Origin: Takakia lepidozioides | Taxonomy: Eukaryota; Plantae; Bryophyta | Assembly (NCBI GenBank): GCA_030704615.1 | Contig: CM060731.1 | Coordinates: 62,310,001 to 62,374,000 of the forward strand | Direction: 5' to 3' | Length of the DNA stretch: 64,000 bases | Part shown: positions 1-52,442 of the stretch, piece by piece | Position numbering within the stretch: the first letter of the stretch is position 1 | Layout: every line of letters starts with the position of its first letter | Position numbers and translations under genes: made by a program | Notes under the pieces: model-generated | Seen by the model: only the letters and a program-made list of their open reading frames with translations | What the model was told of the DNA's origin: nothing | Database searches by the model: none

Positions 1-70
1 GGACTCTGAGGATGAGTCAGATGAAGAAGAAGAGCAAGAACTAAAAAGAAAGAGTAAGAGAAAGGAGAAG

Positions 71-1773: not shown

Positions 1774-2854
1774 AGTGGTGACTGGTTGGACAATCACAGC
1801 TGATGAGCAGGTGAGAGAAGTAAATGTGGGAACTAAAGAGGAACCGAGGATGGTGAAAGTAGGAGCTGATTTGGAGCCGGAATTCTTCGAAGAAGCTAAA
1901 AGCTTGTTCATCAAATACAGAGATGTATTTGCTTGGAGCTATGAGGATCTAAAAGGGATACCACCTGAAGTCTGTCAGCATAAGATTGAACTGGAACCAG
2001 GGTCAGTACCAATCAAGCAGGCGAGGTATAGAATGAATCCCAACTACGCACAGAAGGTTGGAGAAGAGATAAAGAAGTTGGCTGAGGCTAAGTTTATATA
2101 CCCAATAGAGTATACAACTTGGTTGTCACCCATTGTTATAGTTCCCAAGAAGAATGGCAAACTAAGAGTATGTGTGAACTATAAGAAGCTGAATGCTTGT
2201 ACGAAGAAAGATCCTTTCCCTTTGCCATTCACAGAAGCAGTATTAGACACTGTGGCAGGCCATGAGATGTACTCATTCATGGATGGCTTCAGTGGTTATA
2301 ATCAAGTGCAAGTGGCAGAAGAAGACCAAGGGAAAACAGCTTTCATCACAGACTGGGGGGCTTATGCATACAAAGTCATGCCCTTTGGACTTTGTAATGC
2401 ACCAGCGACCTTTCAGAGAGTGATAAGTGAATCTTTTCATGAGTATCTGGATGATTTCATGCAGGTATTCTTGGATGATTTCAGTGTGTACAGCTCTAAG
2501 AATGAGCACTTGCATAAATTGGAGTTATGCTTGGCCAGATGCAGGATGAGAGGTCTGGGCCTGAATCCAGAGAAGTGTACTTTCTGTGTGAACTCAGGGG
2601 TGCTTCTGGGACACATTGTGTGTAAGAAGGGACTCCTTGTGGATCCCAGAAAGACAGAGTCCATTAAAGCCTCTCCACCACCAGTGAATGTTAAAAGTCT
2701 ACGAAGATTCCTTGGGCAAACCAGTTATTACAGGAGATTTGTCAAAAGGTATGCACAAATAGCAGCACCATTGAGCAAACTACTGAAGAAAGATGCAGTG
2801 TTTGCCTGGACAGCGGAATGTCAACAGGCTTTGAGGAACTTACACTGTCAGTAA
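1712..2854 (+). CDS. pol: Reverse transcriptase segment
   Basis: LRVCVNYKKLN, DGFSGYNQV, MPFGLCNAPATFQR, VFLDDF. Confidence 0.95.
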   Translation: MKKKGEIEILEEPATVSLQDEVVTGWTITADEQVREVNVGTKEEPRMVKVGADLEPEFFEEAKSLFIKYRDVFAWSYEDLKGIPPEVCQHKIELEPGSVPIKQARYRMNPNYAQKVGEEIKKLAEAKFIYPIEYTTWLSPIVIVPKKNGKLRVCVNYKKLNACTKKDPFPLPFTEAVLDTVAGHEMYSFMDGFSGYNQVQVAEEDQGKTAFITDWGAYAYKVMPFGLCNAPATFQRVISESFHEYLDDFMQVFLDDFSVYSSKNEHLHKLELCLARCRMRGLGLNPEKCTFCVNSGVLLGHIVCKKGLLVDPRKTESIKASPPPVNVKSLRRFLGQTSYYRRFVKRYAQIAAPLSKLLKKDAVFAWTAECQQALRNLHCQ

Positions 2855-4580
2855 CAACTACACCTGTGCTGATTAACCCTCACTGGCATGTAGTATTCCA
2901 TGTTCACTGCGATGCATCAGGAGAAGCGTTGGGAGCGGTGTTAGCCCAGAATGTTACAGGGAATATAGATTCACCTGTGTACTATGCTAGCCGGTTGATG
3001 AACAGTGCTGAGAGGAACTATAGCACAACGGAAAGAGAAGCATTGGCAATGATCTATGCAGTGAAGAAATTCAGGCATTACCTGTTGGGCAAGAAGTTTA
3101 TGTTCTATGTGGATCACCAGGCTCTGATATACCTGGTAAACAAACCTCTGATAAGCGGAAGAATAGCAAGATGGTTAATAATCTTGCATGAGTTTGAGTT
3201 CGAGGTTATTTACAAGCCTGGCCGTTTGCATCTTGTGGCAGATCATTTGTCACGACTAACAACAGGAGAGGCCGCCACAGGAGTGGACGATCAGTTACCT
3301 GATGCGAGTTTATTTGTAATGGAGGTGCAAGGAAGTGCAGATGAATGGTTAGATTGGCAGTGGCCAATCAGATACTACCTTGCTCATGGTCAGTGCCCAC
3401 CTAGTTATGGTAAGGAGCAGAGGAAGAGAATCGCTATCAAAGCTTTACCTTATACTATGGTAGGAAGCAGAATGTATAAGTTAGGACCTGATGGAGTACT
3501 AAAACGATGCTTGTACCACCATGAAGTAAATAAAGTTTTGGCGGAAGTTCATAAAGGAGTGGCTGGAGGTCATTTTGGAGAAGAGACTACCAGTAGAAAG
3601 ATACTACTCGCAGGATACTGGTGGCCTACTTTGTTCAAAGATGTACACGAGTATTGTCAGAAGTGTGATGAATGTCAGAGGCTAGGACCTTTGCAGAGAT
3701 CTGGAAGGATGGCCTTGCATCCTACAATGCCTACGGAACCATTTCAGAAATGGGGACTAGACTTTGTTGGACCAATTAACCCACCATCCAAGAATACACG
3801 AAACAGGTACATAATTACAGCCACTGATTATACTACAAAGTGGGTGGAAGCTAAAGCTTTGAGGGACAACACAGCCAAGTCCACAGCAAGGTTCCTGTAC
3901 GAGAACATACTTACAAGATTTGGCTGTCCCTTAGAATTTATCAGTGATCAAGGAAGTCACTTCATGAATGCGACCATTGAGTTGTTGACTAAAGAGTTTA
4001 TGATTGTGCATAGAAAGAGTACAACATATTACCCACAGGGTAATGGGCAGGCAGAGGCTACCAACAAAATACTATGTACTATCTTGGCTAAGATAGTCAA
4101 TGCAAACAGAACGGATTGGGATACAAAGCTGCTGACAGCTTTGTGGTCATACAGGACTTCATATAAAGTCACCACTAAGTATACACCATTCCAATTAGTT
4201 TATGGTATGGAAGCCTTACTTCCAGTGGAATTCCTGTTACCTACCATGAGAACGGAGTGGGGAAAAGAATGGAATTGCAAGACTCCATCAAGGTCAGGAA
4301 ACATGAATTATACCATGTGGAAGAAGTACGTGCTGATGCAGCTGATAATATGACCAGAATTCAGATGAAGCGAAAGGAACAGTTTGATGAAGGCAAGTTA
4401 AAGACTTTTAAGACGGGGGATTTGGTTCTATGGTTGCAGAAGAAAGGAAAGATTCAAGCTTCTAAGCTTAAATCACCATGGAAAGACCTTATGTCATACA
4501 AAAGATGTATGATAACAACACCGCCATGTTACAAACCATTAACAAAGAAATGCTGGGAAGAGTCAATGCAAATAAGTTGA
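2818..4580 (+). CDS. pol: RNase H + integrase (frameshifts near 4265 and 4480)
   Basis: HCDASGEALGAVL, NYSTTEREALA, YVDHQAL; HHCC (H..GGHFG..CDECQ); [24 protein letters not shown]. Confidence 0.95.
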
Positions 4581-7500
4581 AGGGGTACAGTGGTATCCAT
4601 GACAAACCCCTGCAGCATGATTTGCATGTTGAACCGCAAGAGCAGTCACGGGCTGCACCAGTGTTACGAACGGAGTATGGAACACTTGTCGCTAGGCCCA
4701 GCATATATGACCAGGGCGAGCAAAACAAACGTGACACAGCCTATCACAGCCCATCAAGGCAAAGCACAGCCAATCACAGCCCATCAAGGCAAAGCACAGC
4801 CTATCACAGCCCATCACGACGTGACACAGCCTATCACAGCCCAGCACGGCGCAACACAGCCTATCACAGCCCATCACGACGTGACACAGCCTATCACAGC
4901 CCAGCAAGGCGCAACACAGCCTATCACAGCCCAGCACGGCGCAACACAGCCTATCACAACCTACCACAGCGTGTCACAGCCTATCACAGCTTACCACAGT
5001 GCATCACAGCCTATCACAGCGTAACACAGTATGACACAGCCTGTCACAGCTCAACACAGCCTACTAAAGTTACACGATCCATAGAATCAGTGACAAGTGG
5101 ACACATAATAACTTCAGGAAAATGGATGACGGAAGAGGAAACGGAAATTACTTTAAAAATGGACACGTGGAGGTCGGGGCGCGACACACAGCCGAGAAGG
5201 AAGTGCAAGAACAGGTGTCAAAAAGAAAGAGGACAAGAACGGCCGTCAAAAGGGATGAAAGGCGGGCCCATTAATGAGTACGGAAAAAGGGAAACGGAAC
5301 GAACGGCAAGTACAGAAAAGCCGAATTCTTGTCACATGTGTGATCCTAGTGGACTATCCAACATGGAAAGTCCACTAAAGAAGATAAAATCTAAAATCCA
5401 GTCACAGCGGATACAGCCAATAGAAAACCAGAGAAAGGATCAAGAAAATGGAGGGAAATTGAGCGCAAGAGGCGGCGTCGTTCTGAGTAACGGGCGTCTC
5501 GACAGGACAGACCATCAATGCTATACCTTGGAAACTATGGAGGAACTAACAGACTATACGCTCGCAATATTACTTACGCAGTGGCATAGACACGAAAGGA
5601 CAGAGCGGAGCTTTTCTCTTGAGCGATGCTTGCAAGCCCCGCAGGCTTACAAGAAATTACCCATAGCTTTCTGCGACAACCATACGTTTATGCTTTGTGC
5701 ACTACAGGCATTCCTGCAGTTGTTACAGCCAAAACAGTTCTGTGAGTCTAAAATGAAGAGAGTGAGAGGAATGGAGGAAATCAGGGTGAAGAGCACCACG
5801 ATTCTGCAGAAACAAACAATTGCTACCCCACAGGCGATACAGATACTGGAGGAGCTGAGATTGCAAGGATTGCAAAGCCTAGATTGGACACTACACCATA
5901 GACAGTACATGTTACAATTTTTGCAGAACTTTGAGCCAAGGACAGGAACAACAACGGTGAAGGGAGTTGAATTAATGATTACTCCCCTATACCTCCAGCA
6001 ATTGTTTCGATTGCCAGCAGGTCAGGTGCATGTGGAGCAACACAGGGCAAGACTGCAAATAGAGGACTTATTCCAAGAAGGGAGTTTCTTTAAAACTCAG
6101 GGTTATGCTTGTACCAAGGCTGTGTACCCAGGGTTAAAAGAGGTAGGCCAGGTATTGAACGTTCTGATTGCCATGAAACAGAACCAACAGTATTTGAGCA
6201 GATCCTTCACGGAGGAAATACTCAAAGGCCTGAAGGGACGAGAGGTACAATGGGCGGACATAATGTACAACGCACTGGTAGAGGAGATGAAAAGATTACA
6301 AGGTACTACCGCAAAGTCTCCTATAATAGTGTCTGGCCCAATCATTGCTCAAATAATCCTTGATTCTGGCATACTTAATGCGCAAGAAAGAAAGGAAATG
6401 GGAGTGTTTGAGCCAGAAACAACTGCAATGGAAGAGCAAGGCTCTTCACACAGTGAGGGTGGACTAGCAGGGCAACCCGAGACTAAGAGGCAGAGACGGG
6501 GAAAGACTGTAGTGGCGGATCCACTGGCTTCACGGATTCCGCATGATAATGTTTCCCAAGCTCATGGCCAGGAAGGGGCACAGCAGCACAGAGAAATGCT
6601 ATTACTGGAAGCAGGACCTTCGGAGAGGGAGGAGGAAGTTACTTCTGCATCACAACCATCACAGCCACCTGAACGACTTGTCACAAGGTCACAAGTTATC
6701 CATGCAGCTCAACCAGAAATAATTGATTTGGAAAGTGAAGGGTTAGATATTCCAACTACAGAACAGATAGTGGCAGAAATAGAGAAGGGGGACCTTCTCT
6801 ATGAATATTCTGGTCTGGTCAAGGAGACAGAAATCCCAGAGGTGCAACAGTTGCCCAAGGGAAATCCTGAGGTGCATATAATACACACACCTGTGTCGGA
6901 GGTACCACAGGCGGAAGGTCATGACACTGTAGCACCGGTGATAGATGAAGTAGTTCAGGAAGAAAATCCGGTGGGACAATGGCCTGAATGGTTAGTGAGA
7001 CATCACACTGTTGAAGATCAGGAGGAACAGCAGCAACCTCACCATGATGACCCTCAACAGGCAATGCTGATGAGTTCCATAGGCAGGACACTTAATTTGT
7101 TGGGGACTTATGTCAAATCCCATGTTCCAATTACCCAATTGACAGCCTTGAAAGAGGAACTCAGGAAGGAGTTTGAGGCTCGACTTGCCACTGAGTGTGC
7201 AAACAAGGTCGATGAAGAGGTCACTCTCAAGATGAAGCAGGACTTGGGAAATACAGAAATGGCTTTGCAATTGGCCAAGCAACAATTGATTGAGGCAGGC
7301 CTCGCGCAAGACCAGTTGCACGAAGCACATAAGCAACAGCTATACCAAATGCAGGTGCAGCATGAAAGCAAGTTGCAAGAACTGAATGCACTACATACGG
7401 AGTTGCAGACAGTGCATAACAGGATGGCGATACAATGTGCTACATTTACAACTATGCTTGACCAATCTACAAAAGAAATAAACAGTCAAGCGGAAAAATG

Positions 7501-9303
7501 TACGAAGGCAGAAGAAGAGAATGTTGAGCAAATGAAGCTCATTGTCGATATGAAGAATACAATCTGTCGCAATGAAGATACTTTCAAGCAATACAGGCAG
7601 ATTGAAGCTGATCAAGAGAAGCACATCGTGGAGTTGCAACAAACCATCATGGCCAATAAAATGAAATCGCGGTCAATAACAAGGCTTGGAAGGAAGCCAA
7701 TAATCTACTTGCTGCTTATGCGCAATTGGTTGAACCTCAGGCGAAGCGCATGGAGGCTTTACAACAGCAGTTGGAATTGTACAAGCTAAGAGAGGAGCAA
7801 ACTCTCAGGGGAACCACAAGCAACTTGGTGGATAACAGCCTTATGCAGGTCTGGTTAGCACAAGGGCCAGTAGAGGGCAAAGCACCACGGAAGCTCACCC
7901 AAAGCGAGATGAATGAGCTCAGGCTGCAGGTGCAGAACATTGCCACAACTACTATAGACAATGTCTATAGTAGGATAGCAGAGTTACAAGAGGATGTAGA
8001 CGGACTGCAGACTCAAGTGGAAGACCTCACTTCAAACATCGACCAAAGAGTCTATATCCCTCAGGAACAGCTAATGGCTTCTTATTTACAAGCCAGAACT
8101 TTGGCTTTTCAGTCTTCACAGGAGGGCAGGAGATGCCAATGATACAAGAGCCAGTACCACCACCACCACCACAACAAGTCACTGTACCAATAGCTGAACC
8201 TGTGGTTACTACAACCACACCACAGCCACCACAGCCGGAGGTATGGGGCAATGCCGCTTTTAACCCACCTAAAACTCCAGCTGCAAGGGAGTACAGTAGG
8301 GCTATGATTATGCCCTTCAACCAAATTCCCATCATGTTGGATTTGGCTTGGAAAGAATTTAGTCCTCCGCAGTCATTCGCACATTACTACCAAATCATGC
8401 GTATTGGCTGCCAGTGGCAACTAGGACTAAAGTTCTTCCGAACAATCGACATATTGAAGATCATCACTTTGCACAATACTGGCACGAGCAGGTACCATGT
8501 TGAGGGAATTGATTGCTTTCCAGGTTGTACATGGACTCATTTATACCAAGACCAAGGAGATAGCAAGTATTGTCATGGGGTGCGGGTTATACTACGCTGC
8601 TTGTTTTCTGGTACGTTACCACATTGAGCAACAAAAGATGCAAACACGCTTTCTGAGTTATTCCAGTGGAGATCATTGGGTATTACCTTCGGTGCCACCT
8701 CATATGTACCTATATGACCCAAAAGTTATGATGCAAAAGGATTCTCAAATTCGTTCATGGTTTCAAGCGGCCTGGAACCATTTGTCAACACAGAAATTCG
8801 GCATTGATGACATTTTCTATAAGGGACATGTGGCATGGAAGTACTTGCACGCTGCACCAGTAATTGGTACCCCACTCACCTGGACAGACAAGGAGCTCAG
8901 TGTCTACACCAATTTTGCTGTTCAGCGGTTACACCAAGTTGTAAAATACAAACTTCCAGACATGGTAGGACAGCATTGTATGCCCCAGATGATTCCACAA
9001 AAAGTTCGAAAATTAAAACACCTGAGAGGCGATGAGGATTCTGATACAACTGTTTCTTCACCGAATTCTTTTGACATGGGAGAAGACTATGCAATTCAGA
9101 TGGAAGAGAAGAAGCGAAGGGGATCTCCTATGCCGGAAAGATTACCTCGATATCAGCCTCCAGAGGGCCTCACTTATCCAGGTAGTGATCAACCATCTCC
9201 GTCAACCAGAGACAGACCTCGGGCTCGTACACACAGTCCGCCAAGAAACTCTCAACGTCAAGAAGGTGCTCACTCACAAAGGTTTGCTAGTCGAAATCAG
9301 TAA
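4478..9303 (+). CDS. Long extra coding region after integrase (segments 4478-7789, 7726-8142, 8133-8627, 8497-9303): repeat linker, plant-transposon-protein-like domain, coiled coil, unknown C-terminal domain
   Basis: 1103 open codons starting at the integrase GPY tail (PYVIQKMYDNN..VNANKLKGY); LQFLQNF..TVKGVELMITPLYLQQLFRLP..VQWADIMY..GPIIAQII resembles Transposase_32/Athila-ORF-type domains; conserved in copies C and D. Confidence 0.75.
4733..5062 (+). repeat. In-frame 30-bp tandem repeat, about 10-11 copies
   Basis: Unit ~GACACAGCCTATCACAGCCCATCACGACGT; translates as TAYHSPSRRD-type decapeptides. Confidence 0.9.
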
Positions 9304-9323
9304 ACCGTGAGGACACGGCTTTT

Positions 9324-9337
9324 GAGGGGGGAAGGGG
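9324..9337 (+). other. Polypurine tract of element A
   Basis: GAGGGGGGAAGGGG just before the LTR TGTTAG; same arrangement at ~54975-54992. Confidence 0.85.
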
Positions 9338-9340
9338 TAA

Positions 9341-10469
9341 TGTTAGAGGACTGTCGGGGACTTAGACACTTATACGGGATCTGTAGGGTACCCTTAATTT
9401 TTGCATAGACTGAGACCAACAGGAGCCTTAGGGGTGACAGCAGCGCACTGTAGAGGGGGGTTACACATCCCGTCACAGCCGTCACAGTCGTCACAGCAGA
9501 CACAGCCGACACAGCCCAACACAGCCAACACAGCCCGTCACAGTCGTCACAGCCGACACAGCCAACACAGCCCGTCACAGCAGACACAGCCAACACAGCC
9601 AACACAGCCCGTCACAGTCGTCACAGCAGACACAGCCGACACAGCCGACACAACCCGGCACAGCCAACACAGCCCGTCACAGTCGTCACAGCCAACACAG
9701 CCAACACAGCCCGTCACAGTCGTCACAGCAGACACACAACACGCCGACACAGCCCGGCACAGCCACACAGCCAGTCACAGCCCGACACAGCCAAACACAG
9801 TCGCACAGCCAGTCACAGCCCGTCACAGTTTCACACAGCCAGTCACAGCTTGACACAGCTGTCACGATCATAGGGAACGAAGAGTAGGACATGGAACGAC
9901 TGTGGGGAACAACACCTGCGAAGGGAACATGTTAGTTCACAGACGACGGTTAGTGGGGGAAACGGTTAGAACCGCGGATAGGAAGATAAAGGGGGAAAAC
10001 GGGGAATTGAAGGACATCATTCGGAGGAGATGAGATCGGGTAGAGATGAGGAACGGAAGTGAAGATAGAGAGATGATGAGTAGATGCTTGATATAGGCAA
10101 GGCTGTAATGATATTGTAGAGCAGATTAGAGACACAATGGCTTCGGCCTGATACCTGATAAATCATAATCGGATACTTTTACGATACAATCACACTGTGT
10201 AGAGAGATCTGAGTGAAGCTGTGAAATGAATGGATGAGCTGATGGAATCCAATAGATTGATAAAGCAAACTGATACTTAATTATCAATGGTAAGATAGCT
10301 AACATGAATACCAAAAGGAAAACAAATAGGAAATACCCCCATGATACACTAGCTGTAGGTCATGACTGATTGTTCTGCGCGGGCTGAGTACTTAGAGATT
10401 TCCAACTCTTCAATCTTGGAGTTTCCGCCTCGAATAGCGAAGGGATGGGTGAGTAAAAGCTGCGCGACA
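9341..10469 (+). repeat. 3' LTR of element A (1129 bp) with expanded CACAGCC minisatellite at ~9470-9865
   Basis: TG...CA ends; matches LTRs at 52445-53236 (-) and 54992-55850 (+); right end fixed by the LTR/PBS junction in copy C. Confidence 0.9.
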
Positions 10470-10688
10470 TAGCCACAAGATGTGATAGTGACCATAGCCT
10501 CACTAAGTCCTCCACCACTATCCCTACTACACTCAAACTCGATAGATCAAGAGGCCGGGTGCAAGAGTTGCCCCATCGTTAGTCGCCGTCTTGCAACCTG
10601 TGAACTTGAGCTTGGGATCTCATGTATTGACTCCTATGAGCTTGGCCTCCCATGTCTTGTTAGCTACCTCCAGTCATGTCCACTGCCA

Positions 10689-12380
10689 CTATCCCAAGCA
10701 GTGTGGACACAACCAATCTCCGTCAAGAACCTTCTCAAGAGGTGGTGTCAAGCATCCCATATGCCAACCCCTTGAGCATCGATCACACACCAGCATGGTG
10801 GCTGCCCCTTTGGCAGACCCACAGAGCATGCACCTCAAACCTGCAGGTACCACTGCCAAGTTTGGGTCAACTCTGCCATCGACATTGGGAAGGTGACATG
10901 GCGCACAATTACGCACACGGTCCTTCCAAGTCATGCCATCCCGACCCTCTAAGATCAGGACCCCTGAGGGCAACACCTCTCGAACCCTCAGAATAACACG
11001 CCCTGCAGTAACATCCAGAGTCGTAGGAGCAGTCTGCTGCAAATAAACATAGTCATCAGGGCTAAACCTCCGAACCCCAGGACGATATCCTCCACCACGT
11101 ATAGTGGCATACCTCAACGTATCACGGTGCTGTGCAATGGCAAGGTTCTCAAAAGCCATGGGCATGACTTTCTTGAACAACTCTGCACGCTGATCACATG
11201 CACGTACCCACACGTCCGGATCGTCAAGGTTAAGGACTTGAGCAGTGTCCCTATGAATGGCTACAGGTAAATCCGGCTCTCGGCCAAAGAGAAGGAAATA
11301 TGGTGAGAAGGAGGCAAGTGATGCTTGTTTGCTGAACCTGTAGCCCATGGCTAACCAAGGAACCTGAAGATCCCAATCTCCTAGGTGTCCCTTCTGCAAG
11401 CCATACTTGCGCAAACCCCTCTTCACCGTCTGAACAACTCTCTCTGCTAAGCCATCGGCCTTAGGATGATCCCGAGAAGTGGTGCGGTGGTCTATCAAGG
11501 CTTTATCACACAAAGCCTGAAACTCCCCCAAGAACTCTCTCCCTTGGTCCGTGAGTACCTCAGCTGGAGCACCAAATCGGCTAAGCACATGATCCAAGAA
11601 TGCATACGCAACCCCCTCACTAGCCTTGTCAGGCAATGGAACCAACTCAATCCACTTGGAGAAGTGCTCTACCATCACCAACACATATCTGTGGTGGCGC
11701 ATAGTCAGTGGCAACGGTCCTGCGAAGTCAAGACTCCACCTGTAGCCCAATCCCATGATTGGTAAAGGATGCAACTGTGGTGTAGGGGCGTTGAATGAAG
11801 CACGCACCCTGTCACACACCATGCACCTAGCCACGAACTGTTGCACCTCTGTATGCATACCATGCCACCAATACTGCCCCTGCAGTAAACTGTGAGTGCG
11901 TCGCACTCCAAAATGCCCCAACTCCTCATGGGCATGCCGCACTAACCGTGCACGTTGTGTGGGGTGAGGCACAATCCTCACCCGACCATCCTCCCACACT
12001 CGAAGTAGGTGTATCCCCTCCCACTTGAACCTCTTGGCTCGTTGCAAGATCCGATCCCTCTCCCTGGCAGTCACAGTGGTTGCCGTGTCTCCCGTGCGGA
12101 GGTAGTCCAACACAGCCGAATCCTCATGTATATCTCTGGCACCACCTGGCTCATCACTAGCCTCAGGGTCCTCAGACACTCCGTCTACAGTCATCCCTGT
12201 TGTAGGTCCAACCTGACCTCCCGATGCCAAGATACACAAAAATGCAGATGCGTGCCATCCCGGCACCATCTCGTCATCCGTCTCACCATGCCATTGAGCT
12301 CCTGTGTCATCCTGCTGGCTCATGCATGGATTGCGACTCAATCCATCCGCATCCCGATTCACCAAACCTAGTCGATGCAC
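10689..12380 (-). CDS. pol: Integrase with C-terminal PHD finger
   Basis: HEELGHFG..CMVCD; WSLDFAGP, LTDQGREF, DGLAERVV; C4HC3 pattern CMLC..VCDRCSRGWHMGCL..WLCPHC. Confidence 0.92.
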   Translation of the reverse strand: MHRLGLVNRDADGLSRNPCMSQQDDTGAQWHGETDDEMVPGWHASAFLCILASGGQVGPTTGMTVDGVSEDPEASDEPGGARDIHEDSAVLDYLRTGDTATTVTARERDRILQRAKRFKWEGIHLLRVWEDGRVRIVPHPTQRARLVRHAHEELGHFGVRRTHSLLQGQYWWHGMHTEVQQFVARCMVCDRVRASFNAPTPQLHPLPIMGLGYRWSLDFAGPLPLTMRHHRYVLVMVEHFSKWIELVPLPDKASEGVAYAFLDHVLSRFGAPAEVLTDQGREFLGEFQALCDKALIDHRTTSRDHPKADGLAERVVQTVKRGLRKYGLQKGHLGDWDLQVPWLAMGYRFSKQASLASFSPYFLLFGREPDLPVAIHRDTAQVLNLDDPDVWVRACDQRAELFKKVMPMAFENLAIAQHRDTLRYATIRGGGYRPGVRRFSPDDYVYLQQTAPTTLDVTAGRVILRVREVLPSGVLILEGRDGMTWKDRVRNCAPCHLPNVDGRVDPNLAVVPAGLRCMLCGSAKGAATMLVCDRCSRGWHMGCLTPPLEKVLDGDWLCPHCLG

Positions 12381-12398
12381 AACCTGAAAGTCATACTC

Positions 12399-13663
12399 CT
12401 AGAGTATGAGTGCCCACCATGCAAGCTTCCCCGTAAGCTTGTCTGACTCCATCAACCACTTGAGTGGCTGGTGATCCGTGACAAGGGTGAAAAGATTGTC
12501 GTATAGATAGCACCTGAAGTGTGCCACGGCCCACACTGCAGCTAAGCACTCTCTCTCATATGAGTTGTACTTAGCCTCTGCAGCGTTGTTCGAGCGGCTA
12601 GCATAAGCCACCACAAACTCTCTTCCCTCATCATCCACCTGTGTGAGCACCGCTCCAAGCCCCAGCATGCTCCAATCCGTATGCAGCTGAAAAGGACGCC
12701 CCCTGATAGGTCGTCTCAGGATAGGCACCGAGGTCAACCTCGCCTTGAGCTCTTGAAAAGCTTGTTCCTGCTCATCTTCCCACTGCCACTCCTGGTCCAC
12801 CTTGGTCAGCTTGGTTAGAGCCTTTGCAATGGTACTAAATCCCTTGACAAACCGTCTATAATAGTTTGCTAACCCCATGAAAGCTCGAACTCGGCTCACA
12901 TCCGTGGGGCGTGGAATTTGTGCAATGGCCTCTACCTTAGTCTGCTGTACCCCCAATCCTCCAGGATATATCATGTGACCCAGATACTCAATCTGGTTGT
13001 GGAAAAACTTGCACTTCCCCGGATGCAACTTCAATCCGTGCGCTCTCAAGCGCTCCAATACCACCTGAAGGTGTCTCTCATGCTCCTCCATCGTAACACT
13101 AAAGATGATGATGTCATCTATGTAGCACCGAGCAAAGTCCACCCCTGCTAGAATCCTATCCATGACTCTTGAAACTCTGCAGGAGCATTCTTAAGCCCAA
13201 ATGGTAAGAACCGCCACTGATATAGGCAATCCTTGCCGTGCTCATTGATCCCCCAGAATGCCGTCTTCTGCTTGTCCGCCTCCTTGATTGGCAACTGGTG
13301 ATATCCGGATCGTAAATCCAAAGTGCTAAAGGCCTTAGCATGCCCGATGGCATCAAAGATCTCCTCTGGTGTTGGCATGGCATACTTATCGGACTTGGTC
13401 TGACGATTTACAGGCCGGTAATCACCGCACATACGTCTCTCCGTCCAATTGCCATAGACATCCTTCTTGGCTGGCATCACTGTGGCTGAAGCATACTCTC
13501 CACCAGAGAGCTCCACCAAACCTGCCTCCCAGAGATCTTGAGTCCTCATCTGAATCAAAGACCTCTCCATGTCACTGTATCTATAGGGTCTCCGAAAGAT
13601 TGGCGTGTCAGTGGCCAACTCAATACGGATCTCTTGACCCTTCAGTGCTCCCAAGTCCTTCAA
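12399..13663 (-). CDS. pol: Reverse transcriptase + RNase H (frameshift ~13160; in-frame stop at 12399-12401)
   Basis: RMCGDYRPVN, LDLRSGYHQ, LPFGLKNAP, CYIDDI, LHTDWS, VTDHQPL. Confidence 0.93.
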
Positions 13664-13822
13664 ACTGAAGGCAAAGCAATTCCTGTAAGCCCTCAGGAAC
13701 CGCCGTATACGTCGTCTCTCTCCTCCGGTGACAATGGGTCCAATGTCAGGCTCCCAATTGTCCTCCGTAACTGCAACCTTAAGTCCAGTGGGCTTAGAGG
13801 TAGAGGACGCGTCCAGTGGTTG

Positions 13823-15556
13823 CTATGTTGCAACCTCTTGAGCAGTACTCCCTGCCTGCTCAGTCAATGACAAGGCCTCATCCTGCCCCATCATCTCATC
13901 CTTGAGGACCTCCTCAACCCGAGAAGAATCCCCAACCTCATCCATCACAGCTGCCTTGGCTGCCAACTCCCTCTGAACCTCGAGCACCTCCCACGTGTGC
14001 CATGGATGCATGCACCCCGTGGTCCTCACATGCTCGCCCCCACTCACTGCCTGTACCGTCTCGGTAGGCAGAGAGACCATTGAGGGAAGTGTACTCCGCA
14101 CTCTGCGTTGCTCAGCCAGAGCCAAGCTGATAATCCAGGTCAAGCAATTGAGATCCATTGCTTGCCCCAACACTTGACGACGTGATGCCTCAGAAAGAGA
14201 CGACACCGCCGTGGTACCAGTGGTAAAACCCATTGCCCGCTCACGCTCGTCAGCATTAGGCTCCACTAACTGCTGCAACTGAGCATCCCATAGGAGGCCA
14301 GGTCCACTATCCCAGAAAGCATGCGATCCTGGGAAGCTGAGCAGTGTAGGTAATGCTGCTCGTGGTTGACCCACCTTGTTGACCACTGCCAAAGGCGAAC
14401 GGTCATCGTGTCTCACACGTTGAGACTGCCTCCCTGTGTCCAGAATGTTATCCACTGTGAGATGTGCTGGCCGCTGCACCCCATCAAATGCACGCTTGAG
14501 CAGTGCGGGTGGCATCAAGTTAGTCCACCATAGCCGTGGACGATGAGCCCGTGACCCCACTGTAGCTGCATCTAGCAACACTGCTGACCCAAGCCACGAC
14601 CGGACTTGATGCACACTGGCCATCACCCTGGCCCAAGAATCGCCCATCAGTGGCACATTCTCCAAGATGTATGCTGGAGATACAGCTTGATGAAGCTGCA
14701 AGTGGCGCAAAACCCGCACCATCTCCCAAAACAGACCCGACCTCGAGTCTCGCAATCCATTGCCATGCCCGGCTGATGAATGCCCTTGGCAGGGCCAACC
14801 TGCCACTACCAGATCAATGGAGCCAACCCGCTCCAAATCCTGCGCCCCCAGCAACGAAATGTCTGCTGGCAAGGCCTGCTGATATCCACGAATTGCAGAC
14901 ACCGACAACAACTCAGGGTACCGCTGCACCAACTGAGCAACATGGCGAAGTGAAACGCGTCGTGCAGTCTCATCCCTCTCCACATACAGGTAACGCCGAA
15001 CTCGTACACCTGCCTGTAACACAGCAGCCAATCCGGTGCTGATCCCGCCAAACAAGTCCAGAAGACAAATGCCTTCATCCGGATACTGCCACACAATAGG
15101 TGTGGTGTCCAATGGAGACAATTGAGGTGGTCCTGGTGCAATCCCCGCACTCTCCTCCTCTCCTAACGGTACAAAAGCCTCCACCCAGGCTTGTTGCACC
15201 CGTCGATCAGCATCCCGCTGCAAATCCTTGCTCGTGCCCCACAATGGAGTCTGAGCAACCATGGTAGGCAACTCCGCCATACCATACATGTCATCCTGCT
15301 CTCCCGGAGGTGGTACATCCTCTGAATGAGCATTGCCCTCAAGCAACTCTCTAGGCCAACTCACTGCCGCTGTGAATGCTGCTAGTGTCGGCATCTTGCC
15401 TCGCTGGGCAACCGCAACTCCTCCTATGAACGTCACAGGGAGCTGCACACGCCGGCCCTCCCCTTGACTGCCATGCAGGCCTATAGGAAGCTGACTCCTC
15501 CCAAAAATCCAGGGTGAAGCCCATGGGGTACAACACTGCCCCACCAACCAGGACAT
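13823..15556 (-). CDS. DNMT3-like C5-cytosine DNA methyltransferase domain embedded in pol (core ~14150-15070)
   Basis: Motif I LLDLFGGISTG, IV AGWPCQGHS, VI YILENV, VIII DAATVGSRAHRPRLWWTNL, IX ERERAMGF, X RRQVLGQAM. Confidence 0.9.
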   Translation of the reverse strand: MSWLVGQCCTPWASPWIFGRSQLPIGLHGSQGEGRRVQLPVTFIGGVAVAQRGKMPTLAAFTAAVSWPRELLEGNAHSEDVPPPGEQDDMYGMAELPTMVAQTPLWGTSKDLQRDADRRVQQAWVEAFVPLGEEESAGIAPGPPQLSPLDTTPIVWQYPDEGICLLDLFGGISTGLAAVLQAGVRVRRYLYVERDETARRVSLRHVAQLVQRYPELLSVSAIRGYQQALPADISLLGAQDLERVGSIDLVVAGWPCQGHSSAGHGNGLRDSRSGLFWEMVRVLRHLQLHQAVSPAYILENVPLMGDSWARVMASVHQVRSWLGSAVLLDAATVGSRAHRPRLWWTNLMPPALLKRAFDGVQRPAHLTVDNILDTGRQSQRVRHDDRSPLAVVNKVGQPRAALPTLLSFPGSHAFWDSGPGLLWDAQLQQLVEPNADERERAMGFTTGTTAVSSLSEASRRQVLGQAMDLNCLTWIISLALAEQRRVRSTLPSMVSLPTETVQAVSGGEHVRTTGCMHPWHTWEVLEVQRELAAKAAVMDEVGDSSRVEEVLKDEMMGQDEALSLTEQAGSTAQEVAT

Positions 15557-15983
15557 CGTATGAGACCGCGTCTGTCACAATGGCCTTGGCTCGCATCACT
15601 GAGCCATCTGTAGGGTGATCCGGCCGTAGTCTGATAGCCAACTCACGCCGTGTCATGCCCCGAGCTTGCTCCGATCCTTCCAGAGACGTCTGTATCTGGA
15701 AAGGACAAGGCTCCATATCCGCCTCCGTGAGGCCCAAGCCTGCAATAGCAGCTCTGCCCAGCATCAGTGGCTGAGCTCCCGAGTCCAACAAGACCCGCAG
15801 TGGCCGGTACCTCTTGCCTGCCGGTCCACTCAAACAAAAAATGCCATCCTGGTTGTCTAACATGACAACTCCAGGTGTCACCATGGCGCGCTCAATGGCT
15901 GGCCTAGCTGGCAGCTCCATCAACCTGGCAGCTGCAGCTTGCCATGGCGCGCTCATGGCTGGCCTAGCTGGCAGCTCCATCAA
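15351..15983 (-). CDS. pol: Aspartic protease segment of element B
   Basis: VLLDSGAQPLMLG ... YDVLVGGAVL. Confidence 0.85.
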   Translation of the reverse strand: MMELPARPAMSAPWQAAAARLMELPARPAIERAMVTPGVVMLDNQDGIFCLSGPAGKRYRPLRVLLDSGAQPLMLGRAAIAGLGLTEADMEPCPFQIQTSLEGSEQARGMTRRELAIRLRPDHPTDGSVMRAKAIVTDAVSYDVLVGGAVLYPMGFTLDFWEESASYRPAWQSRGGPACAAPCDVHRRSCGCPARQDADTSSIHSGSELA

Positions 15984-16138
15984 CCTGGCAGCTGCACTGC
16001 CATGGCGCCGCCGTGGCAGTCTTGACCCTCAAATCCGAGGATCCCTCCGGCACTACACCCCCACTATCTCCGCAGAAGATGAAGTAACCTCCCCACTCTC
16101 ACAGAGTGTAGCTGCCAGCCTGAACACCTCAGCTGGTC

Positions 16139-18040
16139 TTACCCCGACGTCGCAATCATGGTAGCCGAGAACAATGGAGCCTGGCACACAGATGTGGCCG
16201 CTCCTAGCAGCACACTAGCTGCCGTAGCCTTGGCAACACTAGGTAGTGGTGCTACCCGTGTAGCTCTCCCCAATGGCATAGTAACCTCCGCCTCGGTAAC
16301 AGTCGGGCGAGAACTAGGTGCCATGGATGGCGTCGACACTGTCTCCGCCAATGTGAATGACTGAGGAAGCCTAGCCTGACGGCTTGCCTCCCCACGCTGT
16401 GGATCCAACTCCACCTCTGCACCTCGTGGCTCAGGAACTCGTGCTGCTCCTCGAGTCACGGCTGCAGCAGACTCCACCTGCACTAGTGGTAGTGCTGCTC
16501 CACACATGAATCCCATGCCTCCCATATCTCCTCCCTCAGGAGCAGGAGGTGGACCATCCGGCCTTAGAGCCGGTACCACCTGAGCTGTAGCCATGGCAGC
16601 GAGCCTCTGCTCTAGCTGCTGAAGCCGGTTGGCCATGCCTTGGTCAACACCCTGACCTCCGCGTCCTTGGCCATGTTGAGCTTGCCCTTGGCCTGCACCT
16701 CGTGGCTGGCCACCTCGTCCTCTCTGGGCTGCTCCACCTCGCCCCCGGCCACCATTGTTCCCTTGGAACTGGCCTGGGCGCAACTCAGGATGCAAACCAT
16801 AACACTGGGCCTCTCCATGCCCGTGCTTGCCACAATGCCCACACTGCAACTGTGCAGGCTGTGCATGTGCCGTCCTTTGCCTCCCTCTGGGCAATCCTTC
16901 TTGACATGGGTCCTCCACATGTCCAGCACACCACATCCGCCCGTTGTTGGCCAGCAAATGAAGGGAGAGACCCCTGCATCTGAGGTCCTCTCTGCCCTTC
17001 CCTGAGCTTCACATGAGCCCCTTGTTGCCTTGAGCACGTTGAGGTAGTGGTTGGCTAGGAGCACCACTACCCCGTGGTGTCTCCTTAGCAAATCCCCCAT
17101 GACCACTCGTTCGTTCCTCCACCATGTTGAGCTCTATCCGCTCTGCCAGCAAAAACACATTTGTTAAGGTGGGTTGGGCCGCTTGTAGGAGAGTTGCATC
17201 CCGCACCAGCCCTATATCCAGAATTGGACTGCCTGAGCTTCCGTAACCCCTTGGGTTACATTTATCAAGCGCCTCATGCGAGTGAAAGCCTCCCTCAAGC
17301 TCTCGGTCGGCTTCCGTTGGAACTCTTGCAAGCTCCGCAACTTCTCTGTCCTCACCCCTTGGTAGTTCCCTCTCAACTCTTCGAAGAACTCCACAACAGG
17401 GTTGAAGGCAGGCACGGGTACTAGTGCTGGTGCGGTAGTGGCTTGGGTGGACGTCGTAGCTACTGTACCACCAGTCCCACTAGTCCCCTCTGCTACTTGC
17501 TGAAGTTGCCGGTGCAGCGGCAGGTGCAGCCACTGCCCTCGTGGCTCTAGTGCCCCTAGTGATGGAGACATAGTCGGGTGACCAGTACATCCTCCACTCC
17601 TCGATCTCAACCTCATGCCCCCGCCTAAACTCATGGTAATCATCCATAGGCGGCCCCTCAAGGTGCTGAAACAGCCCTTCCATGCCATGAAAGGCGTAAA
17701 TAGTTGTGGATTGCGCATTTGCTGCAAATTCACACCAACTATCAAACTCTTGGATAAAATCATCCAACTCGATGGTGCCCACCGCCCCAGAGTACCTTCG
17801 TGGCCCCTTGGTAGCTCCATACATCTCCTCCATTGTGTCCCACAACAATGGCAAGGAAACAACTTTTACCGCCGGTATGAGTCCTCCTGATTCACAATCC
17901 GAATCAGAACCTTCCGTAGAAGATACAGGAGGTGAAGGTGGCCTAAACCGCACACCTCGTCTCGTGTACCCAGTAGTATCGCTAGTGCTCGAACCGGCAC
18001 TGTCCCCAACAACTAGTGGCACCTCCGTGTTGACACTCAA
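16139..18040 (-). CDS. gag: Gag of element B (several frameshifts)
   Basis: LDDFIQEFDSW, LRSLQEFQRKPTESLREAFTRM; knuckles CWTCGG..HVKKDC (split) and CGHCGKHGHGEAQC. Confidence 0.8.
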
Positions 18041-18709
18041 CCGGTCATGAACATGTCCCTAAACCCCTCTCCACAAGGTAACCGGGTAGAGAACCTGTTG
18101 CGGCTTATGGTTTGGAATACTAAGTTCCTAACATAGCCTACACCTGTACCTGCATCCACCGCAAGCACTCCTATGGTTGGCTGGTCATCACCTCCAACCT
18201 CACCACAGGAGAAACAATGATGGTCTGGCTGGTCATCACCCCAGCCTCACCATCGACAGCATGCTCTAGGACTGGCCGGTGATCAAATCCGGACCAATCA
18301 CCTATAAAAACAAGCGCCCACACAAAACTAGCATGGCGCACAGTCAAGCATGCAAGTATGGAGGGCATCCAAACACAAGAAATCAGAACGACAACTCCCC
18401 CACACCAAAAACAACTCCACGGTGTTGCTCCTGCAAGGACACCCCAGCCCAACCCGGACTGACTCTTGCCTCCACCTACGGAAAGGTCTTGGCCTAATGA
18501 GAGGGTAGAAACTACGGGGAAGAGAAGCTAAAGCAATGCCTAACCCCAGCATGCCCTCATCCCAACACTCTTCATCTCCTCTCTTCCCTCACTTGCATGA
18601 CCATGGGAATATCATGAAGATACTCCTCAAACCGCCCTCCACGAGCTTCAAAATTTGGCCTTCAAGACCACATGCCAGTCCTTAGGCAGTCCACCAGTGC
18701 CTCCACAAG

Positions 18710-19035
18710 TCAGCACAGGCCGTCCACAGGTCAACACGGGCCACCGCAGACCAGCACAGGCCCACACAGCTCACTGGTCACAGCCGTCACAGTCCCACAG
18801 GCCACTAGGCACAGCCTGTCACAGCCCCTCACAGCCCGTCACACAGCTCGCCACAGCCTGTCACAACCCCATCACAGCCCCACAAGCCACAGGCACAGCC
18901 CGCCACAAGCCTGCACATCTCACAGCCCCGCACCCCCTTCACAGCTCGCTACATCCTGTCACAAAGCCCGTCACAGCCCCAAAGGCCTCAGGCTCGGCCT
19001 GTCACAGCCCCTCACAGCCCGTCACAGCCCCATCC
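18710..19035. repeat. CACAGCC/GTCACAGCC-rich degenerate repeat in the leader of element B
   Basis: Many copies of (gt)cacagcc(c), the same word as in family-A LTRs. Confidence 0.7.
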
Positions 19036-20709
19036 ATGGCCGCCCTGGCAGTTTAGCCATTTCTCCAAGGGGTTTAGCCACGCCAAGCTAGGGTTTGTGT
19101 CTCTTGGACTCTAGGCTTCTTTCCACCGAGCTATGGCAGCTGGGAGGAAATTAGCAAGGTATTCTTGTTCTTTCGGCTCCCACACACCACCATAGTAGCC
19201 CTAAGCCATGAGGTGGTTGCCACAAACCAAGCCTTCTTTCTCACTTAGCCTCCCCAAACACGCCACTAAACTCAATGGCAAACAACCAAGCCCTGCTGGT
19301 TCCCAGCCCTTGTGAGCACTCATTCAAGCACTCTCCTTGGCCATATCATCTATCTTAGAGCCTATTCCAGCCCCCTACACCTACTGCTTCAAGAGTTGCG
19401 CTCCCTTCAAGCTTGAAGTTGAAACCCCAACTCACATAGGCCCTACAAGTGCTTTTCTTTCACTCCAAGTGGAAACCAGCCCTAGACCTTCCGTTCTAGC
19501 TCTCTAAAGCTTGAAAATAAGAGCCTCAATGGGCTGAAGGCATGCTCCACACATGCCCCACTCTCAGCATAAGAGAATCAGCTCCTTTCCTTCCTTTCTT
19601 GCACTCCCACACCTAAAAGTGCAAGCCTTCACCAAGCTGATAGCATGCTCCACACATGCAACCTCTTCACACAAGAGGTATCAGCCCCCTATCTTGGCTC
19701 CTTGGCTCCTTGATGCTCTCTAAGACAAGACTAAGCACTCCATAGCCTTTGCCAAGCTCCTGAAACCCTAAGGCTTACATTTCCAGCCACAAGACACTCC
19801 TCTTGTGGTGCAAGAGCTTTTCTTCCAAGCTCTGAAACCCTAGGTGTACATTTCATGGCCTTGCTGCACCTCTTAGCTCTTGTTCCAGCCCTGCTCTTGC
19901 CATGACAAGAGCCCTCTCAATGCTGCATCTCGAGATTGAAACCCAATCTCAACATACTCCACAAAGTGCACTGATTTGCCCCAAGCCAAATCAGCCCTTT
20001 CGCTTGGTCTTGCAATCCTTCACACAATGAAAGCTCGCATTTCCAAGTCCAGTTCTCAGCTTTGCCACCAAAGCCACTATAACCTGCTCTTGACTGGTCC
20101 TCTTCCCAATCGTGCTTGCTCATGCATGTACACAATCTGAAACCATCAAGGTGCTCTGGAATTACCTGCAGCATGGTGCTTTCATCTCTGAAGCTGAAGA
20201 TCGAATGCCAAGGTCTACCACCTCGTAACTCACATCGCCTCCGCTTCTAACAACCAAGAGCTCCACGGTGCTCCTTGCATAACAACTTGGTTTCTCTCAT
20301 TCTCAAGCAAAAACCACAAAGTGCTACAAATAACTCGTATCTGGCACTCACAGATACGAGCTCACCTTTCTCGAGTGATAAAGAAGAAGAAGAAGACATA
20401 CAAGCACAAGCTCATGAGAGCTCACAAAGCTGAAGCATAAACTCATGCATATATAACCTCATCACTCAAATACAAGTCAAGCCAAGTGCACCCCACGCCA
20501 TGGGGAATCCACACTACGGCGCCATAGCTAGGCGCGGTGAGGCTCAACTCGAGAAAGATGAGCCTCCCGCGCTTGCCGTGAAGATAACCACTCCAGGGCC
20601 TAAATCTGCCTTGACCCCTGGATTGACACTTGGGCCAATCCCAAATGTCAATATGTAAAAACTAGCTATTTCCTAGCTAGTTTCACACTAGTGGTAAAAT
20701 AACTTGACA

Positions 20710-21072
20710 ATGGAATCGGCTAGAATTTTGTAGGCTCGGGTGACTCGTATCACCGAAGTCCCGGCCCCGAGGTATGGACGGATTTACACAGTGTTGTCTA
20801 CTGGCTCAGTTCTTCATGGCAAAGAATATCAGGTTACCGTGGGGAATTTCCCTTCGTGCACTTGTCCGGATTTTGTAACGATGCGTGAGGGCGCTCTCGG
20901 CATGAGGGGGAAGTGGGTCCCCTGCAAGCATCAATATTACATATACCTTATAATTATGTGCTGTGACTGTAAGAGAGACCAATTCATTCACCAAGCCACA
21001 CTAGGCTATGGAGAAGTCATCACTCTTCTGCAGCGGGACACCTGCGGTGGGGCTCCGCCAAATTCTCTGTGA
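20710..21072 (+). pseudogene. 3' fragment of a MULE-SWIM transposase, near-identical to 30016-30245 (-)
   Basis: SWIM CTCPDF..WVPCKHQYYIY; direct sequence match to the central copy. Confidence 0.85.
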
Positions 21073-21339: not shown

Positions 21340-21959
21340 ATAGACCCTCTTCCTGCAATCCTCGCCTATAGGGCCTGCTTCTCCAGCACATTGATGCCGC
21401 TCATGCTTTGCAGCTACAACGTGAGTTCAGCTCCCAGGCTCACGGGGCTGAGCTCACGCCGTAGCTACGCTACTCCCCACACCTTGGTCGCTTTCCGGCT
21501 CGCAAGCTTGCTCACTAGTTTTTGGTCACCAACGGGCTTGCACCGTTCTTGGGGTTACTACTCCTTATTAATATTTCTGTAGGTGTCCGCAGGGGTTCCA
21601 CAAGTAACTAAGTCCAAATCTGGTGCACCACCACTTTGACCCTCGATCGTCCCTGTGGTGAGCCGCGGTGAGTCTTGGCCCACCCACCACGGCCCCAATG
21701 GACCGTGGTGAGTCCCAAGACTCCCCATGACTCCCACCATAAGGCCTCAGCCTCATGGTGGTAGCGTAGGGAGTCATAGTGGGGGTGGGATAGGACTCAC
21801 CACGCTCATGGAGCCCCCACCACCGCCACCTGGTTTGTGGGGCTCCACCTAGTGAGCGCCACCTTCAGCCCCCTTTCCTGTTTGTTGCCACTGCCCCCAT
21901 CACAGGGGCAGCCCCTCTTGTGTCCCGACCCCCCGCCCTCAAGGCAAAAGACCGCGACA
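21340..21959 (-). repeat. Partial LTR related to 57310-58034 (left limit approximate)
   Basis: Shared CTCACTAGTTTTTGGTCACCAACGGGCTTGCACCGTTCT block; ends CCGCGACA. Confidence 0.7.
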
Positions 21960-23210
21960 TCATAGGTCTCCAAAGCCTCCATCCCACGTCCCTGTTGTGC
22001 ATACCCTGCAAGCATCGCACTCCACGACACCACATCTCGTTCAGCCATAGTGTCAAAAACTCCCTTTGCATCCTCAATGCATTCACATTTGGCATACATG
22101 TCTAGGTCAGGGCAATGTTCAAAATGACATCTGGTGCAATTCCAGCTTTGATCGATGTCACCATAGACCTCTTTCTCCCTTTCCAGGCTTGTACACGCAT
22201 TGCAAACACAAACAAACGTGATGTGGTTGGGCTTCACCCCTTCGCGCATCATTTGCTCACAGGTCTCCAAAGCATTCGTACCACGCCCATGCTTGGTAAT
22301 CCTGCCAACATTATATTCCATGTGATCAAAGATCGTTGAGGCATTATGTGTTGAACACTTAGTGATCATCCATGATGCTCCCCTTAACATACATGTTGAC
22401 AAGGGTGTTGAGTAGAAAAACGTTCAGCGTGAATCCACTTTGGACAATGTGAGCACGTGCACCTGCTTTCTAGCTTCCAAGCCTTTCATCTTGATGCACT
22501 TATGCAAAAGACACACACACGTATCTACATCTGCTGAAATGCCTCCTTGGTTTAAAGTCTGTAGAGCCTCTTTCAGTCTACCTGCCTCATAAAGCATGAT
22601 CTTCACATGCCCATAAGTGCCAGAAGAGGCATTATGGACTCCCTCTCTTTATCCTCTTCCAGAAGCTGCGGTCATGGTTGAGGTGTGGTTAAACTAAACC
22701 TAATTAATTAAGGATTCGCAGCAAACTGTCTTACTGAGCATCAATGCTTGCTCCGCTATAGCTGCCGCTTCCAGCTGACCATCAACCCATGGAGGTTTCT
22801 TGTAGCTTCCACAGGGAACCATAGGTAATATGGAGCTTGAAATCCGACCCTCTTGGAATGATACGGACCCACACTCTATCCTGCTCCTTCAGCTATCACT
22901 GCCTCTGCACAAATCATGCATACATCCTTGCCGTGCTGCCAATGTGATCATCGCACTCCACGACACCAGATCTTGTTGAGCCACAGTCGAACACTACCTT
23001 TGCATCTTCAATGCTTCCGCATTCGGCATACATGTCCACCAAGGCGGTGTTGATCAGAATGACAAACCCTACAATTCCAGTTTTCACAATGTCCCCATGG
23101 ACCTTCCATGTCATTTCTAGGTGGAGACAGATTGTACATATTAAAATATGCAAGCCCCCAAGGCCAGATTTTGTTTGTCTGTTCTTGTGAAACACACGTA
23201 AGCAAATGTG
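21960..23210 (-). pseudogene. PLS-class pentatricopeptide repeat pseudogene fragments
   Basis: DMYAKCECIEDAKGVFDTMAERDVVSWSAMLAGYAQQGRGMEALE; TALVDMYAECGSIEDAKVVFD; frameshifts; truncated by the LTR at 21959. Confidence 0.85.
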
Positions 23211-40400: not shown

Positions 40401-40508
40401 AAGTTTTCTTTTCGTTTTATTCGGGGCCAAATTTGAAATAGGATGGTTGTGTGTCCTTGTTGTCCTGTTTGCAATGTGTGCGTGGAATGCACATTAATGG
40501 GAACAAAC

Positions 40509-52424: not shown

Positions 52425-52442
52425 TCCCCAGTATGGTCGCCA
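52425..52442 (-). other. Primer binding site of copy C
   Basis: TGGCGACCATACTGGGGA, 2 nt after LTR end ...GCGACA; resembles the Athila-type TGGCGCCGTTGCCGGGGA. Confidence 0.75.

Follow-up and report, generated by a model that had tools for sequence, protein, structure and literature searches.

A DNMT3-type methyltransferase ahead of a probable readthrough stop in a decayed Ty3/gypsy element from a land plant

How is a DNA methyltransferase built into the life cycle of a land-plant retrotransposon, and on which substrate would it act? This question is raised by a 64,000-nucleotide stretch of the Takakia lepidozioides genome (NCBI GenBank assembly GCA_030704615.1, contig CM060731.1, positions 62,310,001 to 62,374,000 of the forward strand), here called the window, in which an original prediction made from sequence alone had placed, at 10689..15556, a long terminal repeat (LTR) retrotransposon with a DNMT3-like cytosine methyltransferase (DNMT) and a PHD finger. 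We found these domains in that interval, but the Ty3/gypsy element itself runs on the minus strand from 20709 down to at least 10471, and the protease Asp lies just outside the predicted span. It appears reasonably probable that the window contains a decayed copy of a high-copy land-plant Ty3 family in which a readthrough stop would load the DNMT into particles and new cDNA would likely be methylated. Compared with known systems, the element is likely a land-plant variant of the KnitGypsy-Dnmt3 type with a likely readthrough switch, self-priming and integration at an internal site. The conserved stop that places the DNMT in the Gag open reading frame (ORF), the permuted end repeats and the likely self-priming had all escaped the original prediction.

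Four consecutive ORF pieces lie on the minus strand, at 13823-15574, 13148-13822, 12399-13190 and 10689-12398. A Pfam scan matched DNA_methylase, RVT_1 (twice, in the ORFs 13151-13822 and 12402-13190), RT_RNaseH, Integrase_H2C2, rve and PHD, every score exceeding the curated cut-off. The domain order gag-protease-reverse transcriptase (RT)-RNase H-integrase, with a DDE integrase, is that of Ty3/gypsy elements, and the claimed positions of the DNMT between protease and RT and of the PHD finger at the end of the integrase were upheld. The aspartic protease region (15435..16175) gave no Pfam match in the window and was assigned by its DSG-type motif LLDSGAQ (Asp codon ~15783-15785) and by PF13650/PF13975 matches in homologues.

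The DNMT domain occupies 14090..15112 as an open frame within the ORF 13826-15574(-), where PF00145 matched with an E value of 2.3e-12 (47.5 bits versus a cut-off of 22). The full set of C5-methyltransferase motifs (DLFGG, GWPCQG, ENV, AHRPR, ERERAMGF and GQAMD) is present in the translation and aligns to DNMT3A; the order of motifs is unpermuted, the domain is intronless, and the key residues are intact (catalytic Cys at 14789-14791, Glu at 14660-14662, Arg at 14540-14542). When the domain was searched on its own, the closest solved structure was DNMT3A (1.5e-11), with DRM at 3e-6 and HhaI at 5e-4. A profile of 51 family DNMTs again had DNMT3A on top (9e-28), with DNMT3B at 2e-24, DRM at 8e-15 to 2e-11, HhaI at 8e-9 and DNMT2 at 1e-5. 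Furthermore, a predicted model of the domain (pLDDT 95.8) was searched with Foldseek, and all 33 of the matches listed were DNMT3A/B/C (best E value 7e-21, template modelling score 0.69). By sequence and predicted fold, the enzyme is thus of the DNMT3 type, as had been proposed, and closer to it than to DRM, DNMT2 or bacterial enzymes. The DNMT3-class catalytic domain is shared with the host plant DNMT3 and DRM proteins as described in the available part of PMC6453930; unlike these, the element's enzyme has no DUF3444, no rearranged motif order and no introns in the domain, and it sits in a polyprotein.

Relatives for comparison came from metagenomes, in which 177 related stretches were found; 80 of these were used. 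All family rows (51/51) share the catalytic Cys, the Glu of motif VI and the first Arg of motif VIII, and 50/51 have the second Arg, an invariance inflated by the picking of rows by similarity. The ratio of nonsynonymous to synonymous rates (dN/dS) of the DNMT was 0.13 (L022/L023) and 0.11 (L022/L034) among stop-free relatives, whereas decayed copies inside the large subfamily gave 0.5-0.7, with RT domains in part likewise. Comparison of the window DNMT with 11 relatives yielded proportions of synonymous differences of 0.72-0.85 (saturated) and of nonsynonymous differences of 0.18-0.34. Judged from the ratios among intact relatives, the family DNMT is under purifying selection rather than evolving neutrally, and we consider it very probable that the enzyme is catalytically active.

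Where the DNMT ends has consequences for how much of it would be made. DNMT and RT share one frame and are parted by TAG CAA CCA (13817..13825, with the UAG at 13823-13825), an exact match to UAG-CAR-YYA; CAR-YYA 3' of a stop is the readthrough consensus of the tobacco mosaic virus (TMV) type (PMC2194720, available part). We examined the junction at 81 loci (the 80 metagenome stretches and the window); at 63 of these the RT start served as an anchor. An in-frame stop at most 40 codons before the RT start was present in 62/63 and was followed by CAR-YY in 56 and by CAR-YYA in 5; after merging at 97%, 52 of 53 anchored loci had the stop, 47 CAR-YY and 5 CAR-YYA. In the background, CAR-YY followed TAR in 205 of 20,758 cases (1.0%). 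The exact UAG-CAR-YYA occurs in the window, L006, L022, L023 and L034, and 51 further loci carry CAR-YY with a different sixth base. As an internal control, the other stop of the window copy (12399-12401) was found in just 3/33 rows. In the intact relative L022 there are exactly two long ORFs (1369 and 1047 amino acids), the first Met of ORF2 standing at residue 117, inside the RT, and two proteins, P0003 of Marchantia and P0002 of Calypogeia, stop 99-101 residues past motif X, as in the large subfamily. On sequence grounds, the DNMT is therefore the end of the Gag ORF (Gag-protease-DNMT), and ORF2 comprises RT-RNase H-integrase-PHD.

Several observations weigh against readthrough at this stop. 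The full CAR-YYA is found in just 5 of the 56 CAR-YY loci, the large subfamily having CAA CCC followed by ATG. Most of the 63 loci belong to this one subfamily and are not independent events, so that about five to six subfamilies is the fairer count. The decayed L063 has a sense codon at the junction, and L071, L074 and L076 have AAA TCA; of the other three among the seven loci without CAR-YY, L064 and L075 do have a junction stop, followed by CAA-YC, and L072 has TAA CCC. A similar-looking stop context in Tca2 gave no readthrough in yeast, according to the part of PMC2194720 available. Even with these points, we hold programmed readthrough at UAG-CAR-YYN to be quite probable from the pattern of conservation.

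Ogre-type elements are described as expressing ORF2 by spliced or subgenomic RNA or by re-initiation. Such a route, with an incidental stop context, would suit the ATG two codons after the stop in the large subfamily, the intron-like GT..AG joints in the 5' leader and the gene models of Marchantia and Sphagnum that reach the RT, which bypass the junction by predicted introns; Tca2 offers a precedent (PMC2194720, available part). Yet the ATG is not conserved, being CTG in the window, GTG in L006 and L030, GAG in L022 and CAG in L034, and none of the joints listed skips 13823. Moreover, the frame is held across five DNMT-RT linker lengths (264, 306, 327, 378 and 387 nt), which differ by whole codons between subfamilies, and CAR-YY is kept though the flanking residues diverge. 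We therefore regard this route as unlikely and continue with readthrough.

An in-frame stop followed by CAR-YY(A) between two ORFs is also known from TMV, from the pol/env junction of SIRE1 and from gag/pol suppression in murine leukemia virus (PMC2194720, available part). Unlike in those cases, the stop stands here after an accessory enzyme and before the RT, so that Gag, protease and DNMT would all be made at a high level, as far as sequence alone can tell. Because the probable readthrough stop lies 3' of the DNMT, the enzyme would be made at Gag (capsid) level and would enter particles as a Gag fusion, and RT-RNase H-integrase-PHD would be made by reading through the UAG. The position of the stop predicts a high ratio of DNMT to RT in particles.

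For the enzyme's main substrate we marginally favor the element's own new cDNA, which the DNMT would methylate. That the element methylates its cDNA had been proposed before, and the base composition did not bear this out: the CpG observed/expected ratio of the element (0.48) is not below that of the rest of the window (0.52) and exceeds that of a neighboring Ty3 pol without DNMT (0.21-0.27), giving no sign of extra CG methylation. Likewise unfavorable is a yeast experiment in which the Klebsormidium DNMT produced no methylation, an outcome that the authors deem inconclusive (PMC5890265, available part). On the other hand, SymbioDIRS-Dnmt3 methylates CG de novo and yet likewise lacks CpG depletion (same source). 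The missing depletion would equally fit an enzyme acting elsewhere, on host chromatin at the target site, on the integrated copy or on packaged RNA, which we see as a minority possibility. In the available part of PMC5890265, de Mendoza et al. do not settle on a substrate and bring up RNA in the case of the LINE type, and capsid-level expression would also suit an RNA-binding or trans-acting role. Against these alternatives stand the fold and sequence, which are those of DNMT3 and not DNMT2, and the related SymbioDIRS-Dnmt3 acts on CG as stated; a Gag fusion would also put the enzyme where cDNA is made. The presence of the family in Marchantia polymorpha, a genetic model with methylation tools, makes both substrate and purpose testable.

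How would the cDNA be primed? The primer-binding site (PBS) at 20366..20375 lies immediately 3' of repeat A, the 5'-terminal repeat of the element, and is not of the TGG tRNA type. It is the exact complement of 10 nt within A (20548..20557), the predicted self-primer. In the window, L043 and L022 the PBS are different 10- to 13-mers, each complementary to a stretch in its own A, which in L043 and L022 lies ~30 nt past a TATA-like box. This covarying complementarity points to self-priming, and a scan of the leader for tRNA-type PBS returned unconvincing candidates only. It is highly probable on this evidence that the first ~10 nt of the RNA serve as the primer. Tf1/Sushi and Tcn1, self-priming Ty3 elements, similarly lack a tRNA PBS and have one complementary to a 5'-repeat stretch in such a position (PMC6317226, available part); unlike these, the present element has permuted ends and a PHD finger in place of a chromodomain.

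Repeat A of the window copy (20376..20709, 334 bp, TG...CA) starts where the family depth falls, at 20709, and measures 339 bp in relatives; 28 contigs of the independent run X1 and 3 of run X5 continue from there into a palindromic junction of B end, GC and A start. At six distinct loci, relatives are laid out as A (339 bp)-coding-polypurine tract (PPT)-B (112 bp)-A-B, with a G-rich PPT before B, and eight distinct PHD-bearing loci stop after the first B (A-coding-B). Two complete direct terminal LTRs were thus found in none of these relatives, and none starts with B. Self-comparison of the window likewise revealed no LTR pair for the DNMT element, owing to the permuted layout and the cut-off 3' end. 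Since the PPT precedes B and the PBS follows A, the established model of reverse transcription should give an LTR of B+A. The A/B joint repeats the two bases preceding B at the PPT and holds primer-site remnants in L014 and L015 and, in L069, filler together with a remnant of the PPT, features which look like ligated cDNA ends. The window family, the L043 type, L022 and L034 share a palindromic B/A joint, in which two bases stand between GACA and TGTC, and a 4-nt target duplication lies directly outside A and B in all six distinct relatives with both ends visible. In the window copy, cut off at its 3' end, neither the PPT nor a target duplication is visible. These sequences make it probable that reverse transcription yields a linear cDNA with an LTR of B+A, that its ends are ligated and that the integrase cuts the internal B/A palindrome of the end-joined cDNA, so that copies would start at A and end at B, as A-coding-B-A-B or A-coding-B.

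One point speaks against this route: B preceded A in 0 of 17 distinct 5' ends, while a symmetric two-LTR circle predicts A-B-A-coding-B copies too. As this class is missing, the two palindromes are not used alike. A simple circle leaves that absence unexplained, and A-coding-B copies could also stem from B-by-B recombination; the permuted ends might then be due to recombination, among tandem copies or repeats, of elements that had integrated in the ordinary way, with no internal cutting by the integrase. We consider this improbable, since target duplications directly outside A and B (6/6), the lack of any copy beginning with B and the conservation of the B/A palindrome all argue against it. 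Cutting at the internal palindrome has a parallel in the foamy virus integrase, a DDE enzyme that cuts a palindromic att-att junction on a circle (PMC1180852, available part). The route proposed here differs in that the palindrome lies inside the predicted LTR and not at ligated ends, and that it sets the ends of genomic copies. The A-coding-B-A-B layout and a DNMT3 domain are shared with DIRS/Ngaro elements including SymbioDIRS-Dnmt3 (PMC5890265, available part). In contrast to the tyrosine recombinase of that group, the element has an rve integrase and 4-bp duplications, and a Pfam scan of eight element ORFs gave no recombinase match. The end structure thus predicts an integration route usually regarded as a dead end for LTR elements. 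Some relatives (L027 at 6236-6347, L033 at 6246-6357, L014 and L015) have B in reverse orientation upstream of gag or contain internal inversions, and these could be products of autointegration.

Chromoviruses carry a chromodomain at the integrase C terminus; here a PHD finger (10698..10832) takes that place, matching PF00628 (E value 6.9e-10) at residues 523-567 of the 569-amino-acid ORF 10692-12398. The nearest solved PHD fingers are those of CHD4, KDM5B/KDM5A (PHD1), ATXR5, PHF12, DPF and BHC80, most of which recognize an H3 tail free of modifications. Where a K4me3 cage would have its Trp, two residues ahead of the zinc-binding His, 53/57 family PHD fingers have Gly, and the window PHD also lacks this Trp; the Asp that follows the third Cys is conserved in 53/57. 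Most family rows have no acidic residue before the first Cys, which counts against K4 reading and leaves it uncertain. With slightly better than even confidence, we propose from these residues that the PHD, having no K4me3 cage, binds the H3 N terminus and keeps integration away from active promoters. A histone H3-reading PHD that guides integration had also been suggested in the original prediction. Being attached to the integrase, beyond the stop, the PHD would act with the integrase and not with the DNMT. Only tentatively do we suggest that three steps of the LTR life cycle were rewired together, with capsid-level DNMT supplied through a leaky stop, cDNA methylated ahead of any contact with host chromatin, and a PHD-DDE integrase cutting an internal palindrome of the end-joined cDNA, only one of the two palindromes ever being cut alone.

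Is the element a property of the host lineage? A search among longer proteins returned 70 matches, the named ones being from Calypogeia fissa (75%), Marchantia polymorpha (up to 75-76%), Sphagnum fallax, Klebsormidium nitens (45%) and Monoraphidium neglectum. A protein library clustered at 50% contained 260 proteins at E values up to 1e-30, and a scan of IMG/VR found no relative of the element. No host DNMT3 sequence was among the matches of the searches. In contigs of the independent runs X1 and X5, coverage is much the same over DNMT, RT and integrase, summed contig depth not being equal to copy number. The family is high-copy in its host. The host is a land plant, given a PPR fragment at 21806-22423 and a neighboring Ty3 family whose named matches are all land plants (41-54% identity), and the predicted persistence of the lineage in a land plant is supported; the family has liverwort and Sphagnum relatives. 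Three readings that would have undone the prediction, namely algal contamination, a chimeric assembly and a single capture of the host's DNMT3, are very improbable: metagenomes contain 177 related stretches, coverage is even in independent runs, named liverwort and Sphagnum homologues reach 75%, the named matches of the neighboring Ty3 family are all land plants, and the stop-bearing elements group together in the RT tree as well as in the DNMT tree.

We surveyed the position of the DNMT in 57 proteins or loci, in each of which DNMT and RT-RNase H were covered to >85%. It lies between RNase H and integrase in 46, before the RT in one ORF in 6 (one of which, P0009, is a gene model skipping the junction) and before the RT with a stop in 5; the domain has thus changed its place in the polyprotein at least once. 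A DNMT tree of 28 rows unites the 12 that stop or end after the DNMT in one clade (100/98), which includes P0001, whose end is not placed. Klebsormidium P0062 and eight other algal-type rows have DNMT and RT fused in one ORF. Stop-bearing and Klebsormidium rows both fall on the DNMT-before-RT side (95/93), the fork that joins them being open in a tree rooted only on the RNase H-DNMT-integrase group. For that group (46/57; P0050, P0052, P0067 and others), Monoraphidium is the sole named host.

The resemblance to an element of Klebsormidium, invoked in the original prediction, held up: with 45% identity to P0062, the window element is of the same type. According to the available part of PMC5890265, KnitGypsy-Dnmt3 of Klebsormidium nitens also has an unpermuted DNMT3-type domain before the RT in a Gypsy polyprotein, DIRS-like A-coding-B-A-B repeats (legend of Fig. 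4c) and purifying selection on the DNMT. The present element differs in its land-plant host and in the conserved stop that parts DNMT from RT, whereas P0062 is fused. In what is available of its text, PMC5890265 makes no mention of a PHD, self-priming, an internal att palindrome or readthrough for KnitGypsy-Dnmt3. The "Ty3 type with PHD" that the original prediction ascribed to de Mendoza et al. (2018) could not be confirmed, "PHD" having 0 matches in the main text and three supplementary files. KnitGypsy-Dnmt3 is named a streptophyte Gypsy-DNMT3 in bioRxiv 10.64898/2026.05.21.726589; this preprint and PMC12344493, as far as available, say "streptophytes" with reference to the 2018 paper, and their supplementary trees might include bryophyte sequences. 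In the openly accessible literature, subscription papers being outside the scope, we found no description of the family in land plants, of its readthrough stop or of its integration route. In bryophyte annotations such copies are listed as hypothetical proteins, and they make counts of DNMT3 genes too high or confusing.

The window copy itself is dead. Relative to other copies it has indels near 13169 (in the RT and RNase H region, 12402..13822), 15464 (in the protease region), 16059, 16873, 16907, 17096, 17107, 17674 and 17729. The gag region (16124..17833), which has a zinc knuckle, is broken by several frameshifts and stops and aligned in three frames to Marchantia P0003 by tblastn; the Pfam match to Retrotrans_gag there is weak (E value 0.0015). 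The stop at 12399..12401, which separates RNase H from the integrase (H2C2 zinc finger, rve core and C-terminal part, 10833..12398), was rejected as a second recoding site on account of its rarity and is attributed to decay. The long 5' leader (18059..20365) contains a patch of CACAGCC-type repeats at 18708-19030, and family contigs skip the GT..AG-bounded segments 18147-18591, 18169-18592 and 20016-20165 (on the element's strand), which suggests leader introns lost from some DNA copies. The 3' untranslated region (10471..10688) includes a 17-nt noncoding motif 3' of the PHD (10571-10587; at 10108 in L043, 8345 in L022 and 7929 in L034) that is kept across subfamilies with saturated synonymous sites and is perhaps a packaging or priming element; in the window and relatives it showed no consistent distant complement and just a modest local hairpin.

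At 10470 the element abuts an LTR of the second Ty3 family, with LTR copies at 52444-53133 and 55137-55849 and a PBS-like loose end behind 10470; an element of that family thus appears to have inserted into the 3' end of the DNMT element. This family, which lacks a DNMT, occupies 1-10470(+), with copies at 40235-41095, 43129-53133(-) and 53237-55849, and has an LTR of ~670 bp, a long extra ORF after the integrase and two stretches of short tandem repeats (4700-5090 and 9450-9860). Its CACAGCC-rich patch at 9450-9860 is ~68% alike to that of the DNMT element at 18708-19030, the two families being unrelated. Elsewhere in the window, a fragment of a decayed PPR gene, which contains an internal duplication, extends over 21806-23170, and a tandem array at 34890-36530 consists of units of ~111-115 bp, each with a perfect internal palindrome of ~35 bp. 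The 5' flank of the DNMT element (20710-20939) is a repeat found again, inverted and with 96% identity, at 30016-30244, in a region that we take to be transposase-like. Finally, an ORF at 55805-56404 abuts the LTR of the second Ty3 family and presumably represents an integrase C terminus with a chromodomain.

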